From NCBI GenBank assembly GCA_004022145.1, contig RCNU01000012.1: DNA of 64,000 nucleotides; one strand, given 5' to 3'. Under the pieces are notes generated by a model that worked only from the letters and a program-made list of their open reading frames with translations, had not been told where the DNA came from and searched no databases. The translations under genes were made by a program, and so were the position numbers. Below, in pieces: positions 42,976 to 55,764 of the stretch. Every line of letters begins with the position of its first letter. The first letter of the stretch is position 1. This DNA comes from Paecilomyces variotii. Taxonomy: Eukaryota.

Positions 42976-45900
42976 ATGCCGCCTCGACGCTCCCGCAATC
43001 CAAGCAGAGACTACGAAGACCCTCCTGTCCGATACCCACTATATAACCTCGGACTCCTCCCCGACCCACCTGATAACTGGCTACTATGGAATGAAGACAA
43101 GAGAGCTTTCTGCGGTGGCCGTCGCGTCAGTCGCGCAAAAGCAAAGGAGTTAGCTGATTTCCATTTCTGGGGTATAAACCCCGGTATTGAAGGGCGTGAC
43201 TCTACAGAACGACTGATGGTAGCGCTCCGCAAGCTCATGTACTATCAATCCGCTCACCACAGGCCTCCTGAATATTCTGAGTTCCTCAATACGCAGAGAG
43301 ATGCCGGGCCGAGACTTCTGGATCCTAATTTGGTCCCGCAGCCTCTACCTATAAGTCGTTTCTTTTCTCTCCTTCCTCAGGATGCGCAGGCTGGAGCGCT
43401 TTCGCAGATTGATATCGCCCGACTGACCGAGAGACAGCGTTTATATCCGTCAACTCGCTCAGGTAATACGACAGCGCTTCGGAATCCAGGAGGTTTAAAT
43501 ATCAGCAGTTCAAATACGGGTTCCCTCAACCGAGGCGGGCTAAATATAAGCAGCTTCAGTCCTTTGGACAGGTACGATCCTACCGGTGGACTTACAGACG
43601 CGGATATCGACCTGATATTGCGTAACGCTACGGAGGCCCTTGCCACTCCAGTCCTGACAGGCGATCTTGCAGCAATAGGGGGCCAAGAGTTTGGACTTCG
43701 CTCTCTGGGCAGTAATGATTTCGACTCTATTCTCAGTCAGATGGCGCAGAATACACCGAGTCGTGCCATTGCTGATCCTTCTCGAACAGGCTTCCAGACA
43801 GGTACGGCGACTCGTGGATCTGAATTGAACAGGTCTCCCCTTGGAAGCCCAGAGATTACTATGGCGGATGCGGGCCCAATCTCAGGACGCAATTCTATCA
43901 GCGGAAGCCTGACGAGCTCTCAAATAAATACACAGCGTCCGATCTCGCAAGATAGTATGGGCCAAGGAGAGCTATCCCAGCAGGCCTCTAATCCACTTCA
44001 ATCTTCAAGCCCCTATACGACAGGGCAACTTCGTTCTAGTGGAATAAGCAACAACACTGATATAGTCACCGAAGAGATCCAGAGGGCCATCATGCGAATT
44101 ACGTATCGAGATCTAGAAAGACACGCCAGTGCTTTACCCCGGGGCCTGCACCCTCAGTCAATTGCAACAAATGAAGAACATCTTCTGCAAGTCCAGCAGA
44201 GAATCTCTCCAATGGCCGGTGCCGTTCGCCTGTCTAGCATTGAGGGCAGTTCCTTTCGCATAGATCCAAATGGCATTAACTATGCATATCGGGGTCGTGG
44301 ACCCGTGTGGAGGAACAACTCCTGTGCTGTTGACTGTGTCATTGTTGCTGGAAGGTTGCTTGATGCAGGATGCACAAATAAGGACCGAGCAAGTCCCGAG
44401 TGGGAGAGGTCCCTGACTATTCTTGAAAGAGCATATATCCAGGCGATAAATATAGACTGGGATATACTATCAAGAGAACAGAGTATGGATACACGGGACC
44501 GTTTCTGGGAGATCCTGGCTGGGAATATCCCCGGCATGGAAGTTGGCATTCCATCGCCACCAACATCTATATGGGAAGAATCGACCAAGTCATTTGAACA
44601 ATTCAAGTTTTCTTATACAGAGGAAATATCATATTGTTCCTGTAGAAGAATGGGGAATAGTCGCAGAACATATGCCCATCGCTCAGTGTCTCCTGCTTTT
44701 ATACCTGCTGATCAAAATGGTGTATCGATGGAAACCCTAGTACAGAGAAGTTTCAGATCTCACAGAGGGATTTGCAGATATTGTAGAAAGGGCATCGCGA
44801 TACGCAGCCGGACTTTCCACCAGCTTCCTCTCCGCATGGTTGTTGAACTGCACAAGGATGCACGTCCGAGGAACCACACGGCGAATATCACAATCGAATA
44901 TAAAGATCGAGATGGACAAGATCAAAAGGCAACTTATCGCTGGCTAGGAGGTATATACCGCACCACGTCGGGGAGATATATTAACGAGCTAGGAGAAGAA
45001 GTCGATTCGTACCATTTCCGAGTCTACTGGACCGATGTGGAAAGAGGAGAAGTCGACACTCATGAGATTCGCATGTACGACGGAATGGAGAACCTCGGTC
45101 TCATTGCGGGCAATATTGCTCCCTCCCATCGAGATGAGCGGGTTCCTGAGAAGTGGTGGAAAGATCAGTCGATACCGCTATTGTTCTATGAGCGTGTGCT
45201 GAATCCAGAGAGTGAAGTGCTATCTGCGGCCAAGGACACAATAATGAATATGATTGACGTGAAAGAGAACAATGGGCTAATTATGCAGCAGCTCTGTCAG
45301 TGGCGGCCATCCAATATGCCTGCAAATCCAATCCCACCTGAGAGAACAGTCTTTCAGCCAACTGACAGCCAAATGCTTTCCATGCCTCCCAGGGAAAATG
45401 TGACTATGGGGGCCTCTGGTGCACGGCAAATATTGGAAACTTATTTTGATGGGAATCTTCTCAATCCAAGCAGAAATCGACCTTCTTCATCTTTGGTCCC
45501 TGGTTTCACTTCTAGCAGACAAACTGAACCGATCCAGCAGAATCAACCTAAAGTTCCATCGTCTTCTGGTGCCAGTCGTCCAAGTTTCGCACAGCCAGGA
45601 GCTGTAGGGTATGCTCCCAACGATGCTAGACGCAGTGTTAAACAGAGTGAATCAACCTTTCCGACTGCAAGCTATGTGGAATCACCCAGACGACATACTC
45701 CGGGTATTCACTCGAGTGAAGTGGGCGACTCCCTTTCACATCCTGTGGTCACTGAAGATGACCAAGTGCCCGATACAGAGACACAATCCCAGAGACAAGA
45801 GCAGACACAGCACAACATGCCCTCGCAGAGCTGGCTACAGGAAACCCTTCCTTCTCTTACTCAACATCAAGAACATGATATACCACCATTGCCAGAACTG

Positions 45901-46846
45901 GACCCTCATTTCCCAGAGGATCAGCCCCATATTCCAGAGCTACCCAACTTACAAGAAGAGACACAGACTCAAGAGACAAGCCAAGGGCAACAAGAAGAGA
46001 CTACTCTCACCGGAGATCAGACAGCCACTAGACAGCCGAAACTGGCCAGCGCTGACCAACTCGATAGATTTGCTCGTGGTCTACAACAATCCTATGAGCA
46101 ACTCGATGCCGAGTCTCATGATCAATTTGATGTTTTCATGATGCATGATATAACGCCTAATGCTTGGAGACCCGGGGAGCTAAAACAGGAGAAAAAGTAT
46201 CCGACATCCGTTGGGGAAATTTGGGACTGGATAGGAAGGCTGCAACAGTTCGACCTCGAAAGGATGGAAGAGCAGTGGAAATACTTGGGCTACGTACCAG
46301 AAGAACACGCACTATGGAAAGAAACGACATTGGCACAGGCTCCGAATACAGTGTCCAAAAAGCGGAAAGTCTATTATGCAGATGATGATTTGAAGGGGGA
46401 TTTGACGTATGATTTCCCGGACATGCTACCAACGATATCGAAAGAAAGTGAAGGTAAGTTTCTGACACTCAAGAGAATCTATTTTAATCCAAATCACTAT
46501 GGGGAACAAAGGGACTAACAGAAAAGCAGGTAATTCAAACCTAATTGCCCCTGAAAAAGGCCATATCACCAGCCCATCCCACAATACGTGCCTCGGAAAA
46601 AGAAAGAGGGACACAGTGCCAAGCTCACCTCTAACTACTGAGATGTCCTGTCTTGAGGGACATACTTCATCAGCTCATAGCCAGACAGGCCACATGTCTC
46701 CTCCTCTTCCACCGCAATCGGACCATCGAGAAATATTACTCGCAGAGCCCGCTGGAGTTACTCGTGACGATATGATGGGAGAGATCGAGATAGAGGACCT
46801 CGATCAGCTTTTCGAAGACCCTGAAGAATTCTTGAGCTTTCAATGA
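42976..46846 (+). CDS. Large protein with a central divergent USP/papain-like cysteine protease domain and low-complexity flanks
   Basis: 1180 aa ORF. A probable intron at 46454-46529 extends it to 46846. Motifs WRNNSCAVD, CSC...CRYC, LPLRMVVEL, YRWLGGIY, YHF, YDG and LLFYER. Confidence 0.75.
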
Positions 46847-47223: not shown

Positions 47224-48273
47224 TCACTGGCAGAAGAGGCGCTGGTGGAAACTTATTTGCCCTTCACGTTCATGACCAGGCTGCGCGACCGCGTCGTCAT
47301 TCTCGTCTTCTCCATCATCCTGATCATCATCCTCATCGAAACCTTCGCTCTGATATTCTTCATTCTGCTCCTCTTCATCGTCTCTCCCCATACACTCGAA
47401 TGCAAGGTGATGCCTCATGGCCGCTTCAAGTCTGCGACGACTGCGACGACGCGCGTGGTCGACCTCATCATGATCATCATCTTCATCGCAATCTTCGCTC
47501 TCATCTTCTTCATCCTCCTCCTCTTCCTCTTCTTCCCACATCCATCTTTGAAGCGTTGATATTACACCCACGAGGCCCTTGAAACAACGGTGCTGCATAC
47601 GCATACTCAACGTGGCCAATTCATTCATTTTGTTCTGCCAGTGTCCATCTCCATCATCCCAGAGGCATATCTCTTTCTGTTCCTCATAGGTCATAGCGTC
47701 CACTATCTTGGTCATTGTGTCTATCAAGGAAGTATCCCACTGAGAGCGCTTCTGTATCTCGTGGGCAAGCGGGTTTGAGCTAGTGAGAACGGTCTCTCCG
47801 ATCTTGCGGAGGCCTTCGAGACCGTTTACTTTGGTCCCCAACGACGCACTTGGTTTCGCTGCATGATCGCGAATATGCTCGATATCATAGATGATTGCAT
47901 TTTCCACATAGCCAGCTGATTCTAATTGGCGCGACGCGCTTTCCTTGCTCCAGGTGACGTTCAGCAGCTTCCAAACGTCGTCGGTCTGCCATTCAAAACC
48001 CCAAACATCAGTACTGACCGCCCGTGCGTTCAGGGCCCTGAGCACAGCGCGAATGGACATCAAAACGTCCGGGTGGGCCGTTGCTGCTTGGTGCAAGAGG
48101 TCGCGGCAGTCATTGTCGTCGAGGTCAGCTATCAAGCTGTCGATCTCTTTGCGCCTTGGGCGTTTTGCAATTCTACGCCTTGGGCGCTTTGCAATTCTAG
48201 AGCGACTGCCAGTGAAACCATCGTCGTCATCATCAGTTTCGACTCTTGGGCGTTTCGCAGGTCGAGCACTCAT
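47224..48273 (-). CDS. Hypothetical protein with repeated basic N-terminal motifs and a very acidic C-terminus
   Basis: 349 aa intronless ORF. AKRPR occurs three times (24-bp tandem duplication at 48152-48199), and the tail is E/D-rich. Confidence 0.65.
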   Translation of the reverse strand: MSARPAKRPRVETDDDDDGFTGSRSRIAKRPRRRIAKRPRRKEIDSLIADLDDNDCRDLLHQAATAHPDVLMSIRAVLRALNARAVSTDVWGFEWQTDDVWKLLNVTWSKESASRQLESAGYVENAIIYDIEHIRDHAAKPSASLGTKVNGLEGLRKIGETVLTSSNPLAHEIQKRSQWDTSLIDTMTKIVDAMTYEEQKEICLWDDGDGHWQNKMNELATLSMRMQHRCFKGLVGVISTLQRWMWEEEEEEEDEEDESEDCDEDDDHDEVDHARRRSRRRLEAAMRHHLAFECMGRDDEEEQNEEYQSEGFDEDDDQDDGEDENDDAVAQPGHEREGQISFHQRLFCQ

Positions 48274-51243: not shown

Positions 51244-51762
51244 TCAAACATGTCCTGGCGGGATCTGCTCTTCCTCGCCACTCTCCTGGTTCCTGGCCCT
51301 GGTCTGTTCTGCCGCCTTCAACAGAGCATACTTCTCCCCCACAAACTCTAGCTCTCTCCTCGTCTCTTCCAGCTCCTTGCTCACACCATGCACTCTTGTT
51401 TTCCAGTCCTCGACTACTGCGTCCGCCTTCTTGGTCAAACCCATAAGCTCACGTTTCATCCACTTCCGCTCCCTCCTCAACCGTCGTTCAACTCTCTTGT
51501 ACCGCGCCAGTTTCCGCTCGAGCGCTTCCCGATGCGCAACTTCCGTGTCTTTGATGGTCCCAATGACATCGTTGATAGGGCCCGTGTGGATTGCGCTGAG
51601 ATTTCCGGCCTCCGCTTGCTTGGCGATGTAGATGAACGTTGCGGAGATGTCGGTAGCAATGGATTTGATCAGCGATGTTTTGGAGCGCGAGGAGAGTGTA
51701 TCGATGTGTGTGAGACGCATGGCACACGAACCGGGACGGAAGAGGTCAGCATCTAGAGCCAT
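51244..51762 (-). CDS. Hypothetical coiled-coil protein
   Basis: 172 aa ORF with a charged heptad-like C-terminal half. Confidence 0.6.
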   Translation of the reverse strand: MALDADLFRPGSCAMRLTHIDTLSSRSKTSLIKSIATDISATFIYIAKQAEAGNLSAIHTGPINDVIGTIKDTEVAHREALERKLARYKRVERRLRRERKWMKRELMGLTKKADAVVEDWKTRVHGVSKELEETRRELEFVGEKYALLKAAEQTRARNQESGEEEQIPPGHV

Positions 51763-53749: not shown

Positions 53750-54308
53750 GAAGTTTGCGGTGCGCGTCGTAAATAGATTTTCAGAACTTCAGGTCACATA
53801 TAGGGTCAGTGTTTGGAATATTGGTACCTATGTACTGGTTCTATGGAGAATGTTAACGCTACTTTCGATATCAATAAGCCACACCGTAAAACTGTCCTGT
53901 AAGAGCGGTCCTACCTAAATAGCAGATAATGGAGCGCCATCAGCGCCTTCGAATGCTCTAGTTTGTATACCATACTCTGTATAGACACTCCATCACTTTA
54001 AAGCAATTGATCGTATTTAAAGAGATAGATAATTCCAGTTCCTGCTATTTTATGGAATCTTCGGAGATATCCACGGGTGGGGTACGTACTAAATCCGGAT
54101 CCACCCAGATTTCAAGATCTAGCAGCTTAGTCATCTACTGTCCCTCCAGTTTGCACTGTTTGTTCTTCAATGACGGATTTCTCAGCGGGGCCCGATTTCA
54201 AAAAAAAGATGATATTAGAAATAAAGTATAAGTATCTTGATCACTCTTATCTTGTTAATTCGCCTGTTCGTTGAGAGGCTGTTTTGATTCTCTTCCATAC
54301 CGTTCACC

Positions 54309-55764
54309 ATGGGCCAAATCGAGGAACTCCCCGACGACTTCGACGAGTCGCTCGATCTCAATAAACCTCCGATCGAACCTATCGCCCCGACGCTGCCACC
54401 CAGTGGTCTAGCAGCGATTACTGGTGTTTCCAATGAAGTTCCCTTCCCTATCAATGAGGATAGATTGAAAGATGTACACAATGATCCATCGGCGCCGCGG
54501 ATGCCCCCGGCAATGGAGTCTGTCAAGTCGCATACTGCAGATGAAATCTTGGAGATGATGAACAAGACGCCATTGTTCATGACGGATTTGGAAAATGCGG
54601 GTGATGAGGGTGCGTATATTGCTGTCTTATCTTATCTGTACTCTCTGACAGTGGGGTACATGATCCCTCGCTGAGGAGCCTGAGGAGTACATGGCTAATG
54701 TAAATGAAACCTGCAGAGGGAAATAATGTCATGCTCGACGCTATACGCGCTATCCAAAACGAAGGTACCCGTGGTGAAGTTGCGCAGAATTTCCGAGAGC
54801 AAGGAAACGAGTCTGCCAAGGCCAAGAATTGGAGGGACGCGAAGGAATTTTATGATAAAGCTATTGCCGTCTTGGTCGTCAAGGAAGACAGGTGGGAAAA
54901 GCCAGAGGATCCGGAGGCGGAGAAGAAGTTATTGCGGGAAGTGGAAGAGGCATGCTATGCCAATCGGGCTTTGTGCAACTTGGAACTGAGTATGTGGATG
55001 TCCTTAATGCTGCTGTCTTTTTGACAGCTCGCTGATAACGACCTGCAGGAAACTATCGATCTACGACACTGGACTGTGCCTCTGCACTGAAGGTCAACCC
55101 CAAGAACATCAAAGCCTACTACCGGTCATCCGCGGCATTGCTTGCCTTGGATAAGATTGATGAGGCTGAAGATGCCTGCTCGCGTGGTCTGCAGCTCGAC
55201 CCGACCAACAAATCACTGCAGCAAGTGGCGTCCAAGATCGCTGCTCGTAAGACTGTCGTGGAGCGCATTGCGGCAAAGAAGAAGGAGGAAGAAGAACGAG
55301 CTCGCAAGGAGAAACTGATTCTCAATACGGCATTGCGTGCCAGACAGATCAGGACAAGAATGACCAACCAGCCCCCCGATATGGAAGACGCCAAGATCAA
55401 GATGGTTCCTGATCCGCTCTCTCCTGAAAGCACGCTTGTTTTCCCGACCGTGTTCCTCTACCCTGTACACGCGCAGTCGGATTTCATCAAAGCCTTCTCA
55501 GAGATGGAGACTATTGCCGATCACCTTAGCTATATCTTCCCACTGCCATGGGATACCAAGCAGGAGTACACGCTTAATAACGTCGAGTGCTACATGGAGA
55601 CTACCACAGGTGGTCTCATCAAGGCTGGGAAGAAGCTCCCGCTGCTGAAGATCCTTGCTGGAGGCAAGGTTGAAGTTGTCGATGAACTCGTTCGCATCAA
55701 CGTCGTGCCGACAAGCCACGTTCCCAAATGGATTGAAGAAATGAAGGCCAGGAAGGCAAGCTGA
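54309..55764 (+). CDS. CNS1: Hsp70/Hsp90 co-chaperone, TPR + wheel domain (Cns1/TTC4)
   Basis: MNKTPLFMTDL, TPR repeats (AQNFREQGNE, YANRALCNLEL, NPKNIKAYYR) and C-terminal FPTVFLYP..QSDFI. Two introns. Confidence 0.88.

Follow-up and report, generated by a model that had tools for sequence, protein, structure and literature searches.

Within a stretch of 64,000 nucleotides from Paecilomyces variotii (GenBank assembly GCA_004022145.1, contig RCNU01000012.1; hereafter the window), a long open reading frame (ORF) encodes a protein of 1180 amino acids (aa) whose closest relatives are P. variotii hypothetical proteins (100%, 97% and 95%). A first-pass annotation had read into this frame a divergent cysteine protease with features of both ubiquitin-specific proteases (USPs) and coronavirus papain-like protease (PLpro). 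The eight motifs on which it drew, together with W445, C450, H680 and D702, are all located where it had placed them, and within the one ORF: GPVWRNNSCAVDC (aa 442-454, containing W445 and C450), CSC (aa 554-556), CRYC (aa 600-603), FHQLPLRMVVEL (aa 614-625), YRWLGGIY (aa 654-661), SYHFRVYW (aa 678-685, with H680), MYDG (aa 700-703, with D702) and IPLLFYER (aa 733-740). These are not chance resemblances, because they coincide with conserved columns of a family of 213 domains and because AlphaFold 2 (AF2) models this stretch with a USP fold. Judged from such models, the domain almost certainly is one. The features of the gene are as follows, with positions in the window.

42976..46518 (+): long ORF, 1180 aa, from the ORF list
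43006..43395 (+): ordered N-terminal module, aa 11-140 (LxKLxYY..HRP..RDAGPRLL..PISR), from a predicted local distance difference test score (pLDDT) of 91-98 and conservation
43399..44037 (+): disordered S/G/P/Q-rich linker, aa 142-354, from composition and pLDDT mostly <50
44056..44265 (+): ordered pre-domain segment, aa 361-430, from the model and conservation
44275..45210 (+): predicted USP-fold (thumb-palm-fingers) domain, aa ~434-745, from AF2, Foldseek, VIA-align and hhalign
44308..44310 (+): W445, candidate oxyanion-hole residue, from its position five residues ahead of the Cys and column counts
44323..44325 (+): C450, candidate nucleophile at the start of helix 450-462, from structural offsets and hhalign
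44635..44784 (+): fingers zinc ribbon (C554, C556, C600, C603), from conservation and alignment with the CxxC pairs of Ubp8
45013..45015 (+): H680, candidate general base, from alignment to the GHY His of USPs
45079..45081 (+): D702, candidate third triad residue, from conservation and alignment to the F-N-D motif, register +/-1 residue
45211..45291 (+): C-terminal helices packed on the domain, aa 746-772, from AF2 models
45328..46453 (+): low-complexity S/Q/P/E/T-rich C-terminal arm with a K/R cluster (possible nuclear localisation signal, KKRK), from composition
46454-46529 (+): predicted 76-nt intron, from GT..AG ends and a CTAAC branch site; the resulting C-terminus equals that of strain model P0005

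Predicted fold and family

The AF2 model of aa 411-785 has a pLDDT of 93.7 and a predicted template modelling score (pTM) of 0.90. Its best Foldseek matches in the PDB are USP30 (E 7e-12), USP35, Ubp8 and USP46, all between E 7e-12 and 4e-11 at 10-14% identity, and a VIA-align comparison with 48,161 chains places USP35 first (Z 19.9, root-mean-square deviation (rmsd) 3.9, 262 aligned), followed by USP14 (19.3) and USP30 (19.1), with Pan2 and USP54 (both 17.6), USPL1 (17.0), TssM (13.3) and MERS PLpro (12.4) further down. The USP/papain-like fold that the first-pass annotation had anticipated is thus well borne out by structure prediction and fold search, while its likening of the domain to PLpro needs narrowing: a Trp does lie five residues ahead of the Cys, but the modelled fold as a whole is nearer to cellular USPs (Z 18-20) than to coronavirus PLpro (Z 11.7-12.4), so that the likeness is confined to the active site.

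Sequence methods agree weakly with a USP fold. Aligned by hhalign with seven USPs of the same genome, the family reaches a probability of 89 (E 2e-6), and the family profile against the PDB returns Ubp8 at E 0.063, PAN2 at E 2.6 and USP9X at E 5.7 (10 rows); phmmer against the PDB finds no match. Pfam yields nothing useful on the ORF or on the domain, with no UCH (PF00443) match, and of 35 members five match UCH_1, weakly (best E 1.4e-4). ESM features in the Atlas recover UCH clusters at 0.92, along with unnamed clusters, some from Basidiomycota.

A search with aa 425-765 recovered 133 proteins among 1580 candidates; the 120 of these that are listed carry no Pfam domain and are unnamed or hypothetical. 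These labels, and the lack of a UCH match, agree with the earlier expectation that standard annotation had missed the domain. A family profile of 118 sequences, from which three near-identical P. variotii entries were left out, gave 346 matches at E<=0.001 among 1.84 billion representatives, 208 of them at E<=1e-30, with no spill into canonical USPs among the best 150; the family is therefore compact. Named members belong to Eurotiales, Onygenales, Arachnomyces, Phaeomoniella, Pyrenula and Lecanoromycetes. Word-based searches, which can miss distant forms, found none in classes beyond Eurotiomycetes and Lecanoromycetes, and one started from the most divergent of the members, that of Phaeomoniella, returned three proteins and no new taxa. 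The P. variotii genome itself gave one match to the domain at first look, and the locus is not among the PF00443 matches of that genome (23 matches at 16 loci).

Candidate active site

C450 corresponds to the catalytic Cys of USPs by two routes. Structural alignments start at an offset matching the catalytic Cys of six USP-fold proteins, assuming no gap in 11-14 residues (alignment start/catalytic Cys: USP35 436/C450, USP30 64/C77, USP2 264/C276, Ubp8 133/C146, USP7 209/C223, USPL1 225/C236), with the PLpro alignment start differing by one; hhalign also puts C450 on the catalytic Cys, and H680 on the His of the GHY motif. By alignment C450, H680 and D702 take up the homologous positions of a Cys-His-Asp/Asn triad, with the register of D702 good to one residue either way. 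Y701-D702-G/S703 presents a single acidic residue where USPs have adjacent [DNS]-D.

Column counts come from 225 stored proteins with 216 full domains, of which 213 were counted after removal of three near-identical P. variotii entries. Asp at 702 is present in all 130 Cys-bearing domains, and Asp or Glu in 80 of the 83 Cys-less ones; D453 is likewise invariant in Cys-bearing members (130/130). His at 680 occurs in 126/130 Cys-bearing vs 31/83 Cys-less domains and Trp at 445 in 120/130 vs 16/83; out of 323 well-filled columns these are the two that best track C450, and once the Cys is gone positions 445, 450 and 680 spread over at least 10 residue types each. Trp, Cys and His occur together in 119 of the 213 domains and are all three missing from 44, and the full set W-C-H-D is kept in 119 rows across distant clades. 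The zinc-ribbon assignment holds up, each of C554, C556, C600 and C603 being present in 192-196 of the 213 domains and aligned with the CxxC pairs of Ubp8. Another position, R507 (44494-44496), is conserved in 127/130 Cys-bearing vs 49/83 Cys-less domains and might bind substrate or organise the active site.

W445 stands, by sequence position, where USPs have their oxyanion Asn, five residues ahead of the Cys (USP7 N218, USP2 N271; accessible part of PMC10867860). In SARS-CoV-2 PLpro the oxyanion hole is occupied by W106, five residues ahead of C111 (excerpted text of PMC11266423), and the way in which W445 and H680 track the Cys fits a PLpro-style Trp oxyanion hole. Structural offsets, hhalign and column conservation together support C450/H680/D702 as the candidate triad, and the P. 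variotii protein is probably catalytically active. Conservation of the proposed triad in homologues is a more divided matter: Cys, His and Asp are intact in 126 of the 213 domains and not intact in 87, and 83 have no Cys.

Substrate site and proposed mechanism

Ubiquitin-specific USPs have a conserved Glu that holds R72 of ubiquitin, and two blocking loops (PMC8983731, from the part available). The Glu of the QQDxxE motif is not conserved in the family alignment under either register of the corresponding helix. By helix order, quite probably the correct register, position 528 is P/S and position 531 A/S/T; by HMMER alignment to Ubp8, D508 is fairly conserved and 509 variable (E in 29/130). Blocking loop 1 (BL1) is 5-6 residues short by hhalign against USPs of the same genome, the spacing from Y654 to the His across blocking loop 2 (BL2) is 12 residues in 147 of 213 domains vs 16 in one of those USPs, and the KRF/KI blocking-loop motifs are missing. 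Paecilomyces and Thermoascus carry a 13-14-residue insertion in BL2 (44962-45006, aa 663-677), modelled as a long beta-hairpin immediately ahead of H680, where most relatives have four residues.

With the canonical ubiquitin-tail motifs missing, ubiquitin is doubtful as a substrate; of the deubiquitinase or ubiquitin-like modifier (UBL) isopeptidase activity first proposed, it is the ubiquitin part that the absence of QQDxxE, of the HxG...GH box and of full blocking loops calls into question. Weakened S1 sites go with changed specificity elsewhere, as USPL1 (SUMO) and USP53/54 (K63 chains) show. USPL1 (C98, a SUMO isopeptidase) has the same USP fold (rmsd 4.5, 242 aligned) and zinc-ribbon fingers, and it too lacks the Glu that binds ubiquitin R72 and has reduced blocking loops (PMC8983731, same part); however, the loops here are shortened and not absent, the resemblance seen is one of structure, and the Peptidase_C98 profile finds no match on the ORF or on the members tested. 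USP53 and USP54 share a similarly divergent fold, with an NSC Cys loop, truncated BL1 and BL2, and K63-chain activity despite a weak S1 site, and differ in having an Asn oxyanion residue (N35) and extra thumb zinc sites (PMC12037411, in the portion consulted). If the P. variotii protein is active, we would give an even chance to ubiquitin, restricted by chain or by target, a lesser one to SUMO, NEDD8 or another UBL, and a smaller one still to a substrate outside the UBLs.

Relative to canonical USPs (MEROPS C19, PF00443; USP35, USP14, USP30, USP12 and USP2) the domain has the same thumb-palm-fingers fold (Z 18.7-19.9, rmsd 3.9-4.3, 256-269 aligned), the same order of Cys...CxxC...LPxxL...YxLxG...His...Asp...LFYER and a zinc ribbon, which is common there though not universal. 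Unlike them it shows 10-14% identity, a Trp for the oxyanion Asn, no QQDxxE, no HxG...GH, no Pfam match and a BL1 about 5-6 residues shorter, and it has extra conserved motifs (RGRGP, GxTxxDR, RGE, GxIxGG) and N-terminal modules. That it is nonetheless a broad-specificity canonical deubiquitinase, diverged in sequence only, seems to us highly improbable: the top structural matches are indeed ubiquitin-bound USPs (USP30, USP35, USP46, USP12 and Ubp8) and the ESM features do point to UCH, but the ubiquitin-tail determinants are absent under both candidate registers, and neither Pfam nor the compact profile, with its 346 proteins, connects the family to canonical USPs.

The flanks of the domain are less uniform than the long disordered S/Q/P-rich arms first described. 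In an AF2 model of aa 1-785 the linker at aa 142-354 is mostly disordered, as proposed; aa 11-140, by contrast, has a pLDDT of 91-98, non-regular coil included, and aa 361-430 is mostly ordered (helix 360-376, consensus EAVERAxMxxAYxxL, then strands), both being conserved among relatives. Beyond aa 785 the C-terminal arm is of low complexity, judged by composition only. Were aa 361-775 the sole rigid part, the 785-aa model should have a pTM of roughly 0.5; the value obtained, 0.61, is higher and suggests docking of the N-terminal module on the USP domain. Coevolution by mutual information with average product correction (118 rows, effective number 91) is too noisy to place the module, with L387-T530 and F103-T530 as hints, and fold searches with the 785-aa model were taken up by matches to the USP domain. 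The module occurs among Eurotiomycetes (Phaeomoniella and Pyrenula included); it is absent from 10 of 10 named Lecanoromycete proteins tested and from loci L030-L036 (some of these models being partial), and has no Atlas match and no PDB sequence match. Of 163 long C-terminal tails of orthologues, 140 contain K/R clusters, vs 40% of shuffles, an excess that suggests nuclear import, and the protein is probably nuclear.

We favour, with fair though far from full confidence, a narrow-specificity ubiquitin or UBL isopeptidase, probably nuclear, with a Trp oxyanion hole and an additional non-catalytic role. In P. variotii C450 would be the nucleophile, H680 the base, and D702 would orient the His; W445 would serve in the oxyanion hole instead of the customary Asn, like W106 of SARS PLpro, and the four-Cys zinc ribbon would hold the fingers. 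The S1 site would be without canonical ubiquitin-tail contacts, with short blocking loops in most members, which makes a general mono-ubiquitin hydrolase unlikely; the likely target would be one ubiquitin chain type, one ubiquitylated protein or another UBL, with the ordered N-terminal modules helping specificity. The fold may also have a separate binding or scaffold role, and such a catalysis-independent role would be why lineages without the Cys, Trp or His kept the domain.

Several observations weigh against this isopeptidase reading. The register of D702 is ambiguous between the third critical residue and the fourth, hhalign giving the fourth and the strand pattern pointing to the third, and the register of the QQD-equivalent helix is likewise ambiguous between the helix-order and Ubp8 alignments. 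The Gly ahead of the catalytic His is missing, position 679 being variable (G in 12/130); the corresponding G271 of PLpro is intolerant of mutation (PMC11266423, excerpted text), and its absence here may signify that the site does not accommodate a Gly-Gly tail. Covariation of the Cys with the Trp and with the His is not significant with phylogeny controlled (8 independent pairs on starred branches; median p 0.625 and 0.5), and, of two control columns, C454 has no partner above 0.37 but H634 also has strongly tracking partners, so that column tracking by itself can reflect clade structure. Finally, the Cys is missing from 83 of 213 relatives, so that many lineages can do without the catalytic residues.

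The missing Gly, QQD..E and KRF/KI motifs also leave room for an active cysteine protease that is no ubiquitin or UBL isopeptidase and instead cuts a specific protein or itself, its fingers and N-terminal module binding partners; other USP-like folds matched are viral polyprotein proteases (PLpro, the leader protease of foot-and-mouth disease virus, rubella). We think this unlikely, given a full thumb-palm-fingers architecture with zinc ribbon aligned over about 260 residues to USPs that bind ubiquitin or UBLs, and given that USPL1 and USP53/54 combine weak S1 motifs with UBL or chain activity.

Repeated loss, locus and origin

When the catalytic columns are left out, the resulting unrooted FastTree tree implies 11 changes of Cys state, of which starred branches force eight or more. 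Because the Cys is nearly fixed in the outlying clade with named Lecanoromycetes and Chaetothyriomycetidae (62/63 rows), the changes are taken as losses; the Penicillium clade keeps the Cys as well (46 of 48 rows). It is retained by Paecilomyces, Thermoascus, most Penicillium, A. cristatus, A. candidus and most lichen fungi. Among the Cys-less groups are A. lentulus/fumigatus, A. flavus/oryzae, black aspergilli, the A. multicolor group, Rasamsonia and Onygenales. In the lichen fungus Xylographa bjoerkii, outside the tree set, one protein (P0313) has lost both Cys and His; losses are thus not limited to Eurotiomycetes.

Cys-less rows keep 24 positions at >=90%, among them GxGP, YRWxGGxY, Y701 and YE, and all four zinc ligands are kept in 55 of 83 Cys-less vs 99 of 130 Cys-bearing domains, from which we infer that the fold has a job that does not depend on catalysis. 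Pseudo-USPs of this kind are known: PAN2 and Sad1/USP39 use the USP fold as a scaffold (Z 15.5-17.6) and resemble the Cys-less relatives. One could go further and regard the whole family as a pseudo-deubiquitinase scaffold in which the P. variotii residues are a relic or structural, without meaningful catalysis. The number of state changes, the G-x-G-P, YRWLGGIY, Y701 and YE elements conserved at >=90% in both groups, the UCH_1 matches in a few members and the longest structural alignment, to Neurospora crassa Pan2 (285 residues), all lean that way; nevertheless W, C, H and D persist together in 119 of 213 rows, and positions 445, 450 and 680 scatter after Cys loss as catalytic constraint predicts, which makes a family-wide scaffold rather unlikely. 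The P. variotii copy, unlike PAN2 and Sad1/USP39, has a full triad, and Pfam finds no nuclease, WD40 or ZnF-UBP domain on the ORF.

More tentatively, the family as a whole might act on a non-ubiquitin target, either as the fungal equivalent of USPL1, acting on SUMO or another UBL, or as a dedicated protein protease; it would have a PLpro-style Trp oxyanion hole, be held by its N-terminal module as by a clamp, and have turned pseudo-enzyme at least eight times (including Aspergillus fumigatus, A. flavus/oryzae, black aspergilli and Onygenales).

The gene is vertically inherited and apparently single-copy: named rows cluster by taxon on the gene tree, and 4 of 12 related loci (L025-L028, of which L025 and L026 are near-copies) have the same peroxidase and small ORF downstream in the same order, L029 being too short and L030-L036 having other neighbours. 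A mobile-element origin was rejected in view of the single match in the genome at first look and the conserved neighbours. In the window the downstream block consists of a haem peroxidase (PF00141; 49139-49924), a small ORF without clear family (51244-51762) and a Cns1/TTC4-type gene (54288-55764), the first two present in L025-L028 and the last in L027-L028. An acidic-tailed ORF of 349 aa with no Pfam family (47224-48273, minus strand) adjoins the gene here as in L025/L026. In distant loci that lack the N-terminal module, a CDC45 gene lies directly upstream on the opposite strand (L030:6465-8393, L031:6230-8176, L033:2692-5469; three tested).

The Trp five residues ahead of the Cys, the narrow taxonomic range and the nearly intronless ORF invite the thought of a viral protease, from a nidovirus PLpro or a giant-virus USP, captured and domesticated in an ancestor of Eurotiomycetes and Lecanoromycetes, and giant-virus USPs do score well (Pithovirus E 1.5e-11, TMt 0.63). 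Such a capture concerns origin alone and is compatible with the favoured isopeptidase reading; it is very unlikely, however, in view of the PLpro scores (Z 11-12 vs 18-20 for cellular USPs), the 7-14% identity to viral matches, the conserved synteny and the grouping of named rows by taxon. Membership of PLpro itself was rejected: the domain belongs not to a viral nsp3 polyprotein but to a gene on a fungal chromosome, where the neighbours are ordinary and synteny is conserved. Trp at Cys-5 (by sequence position), Cys-His-Asp and a zinc ribbon are shared with PLpro; unlike it, the family has neither the Gly ahead of the His, essential as G271 in PLpro, nor a conserved equivalent of D164.

With the predicted intron spliced out, the protein would be 1264 aa long and end at 46846, the long ORF being likely linked to a downstream ORF of 115 aa (46499-46846); no splice joint for it appears in the read runs examined, and public models of the gene conflict (675 aa (partial), 1192 aa and 1269 aa). 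In two read runs (X1 and X2) coverage is even over the gene and the DNA between genes, which makes them look like DNA, and a third (X4, which we guess to be RNA) has three small contigs on the gene at depth 2.5-6.5, with flanks at 241-273. Runs X14-X22 contained almost no sequence words of the gene, and X14 yielded nothing. Because genes cannot be ranked by contig depth, these runs hint at most at low expression in culture.

Because several of the sequence tests that define C19 fail, the domain is best classed as a new family of the USP fold, distinct from canonical USPs, USPL1 and PLpro, though it would be USP-like in its working. A search of titles and abstract beginnings, mostly of open-access papers, found none describing the family and no mention of six orthologue locus tags; a 2023 classification of papain-like proteases has, in the text available, only UCH, UCH_1 and C98 in the relevant cluster (PMC10318531). 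Neither supplement of a degradome paper (PMC7804941) lists An08g08730, the tag of the orthologue in Aspergillus niger, which belongs to a Cys-less clade; this is not conclusive, as one file also uses other tag styles. Inventories of deubiquitinases and peptidases in Aspergillus, Penicillium and their relatives are built on Pfam and MEROPS matches and miss the gene. If active, the protein would add a new USP-fold family, non-canonical in both active site and substrate site, and its matched active and inactive orthologues at one locus may offer a natural series on the change from deubiquitinase to pseudo-deubiquitinase and on the role of the fold without catalysis.

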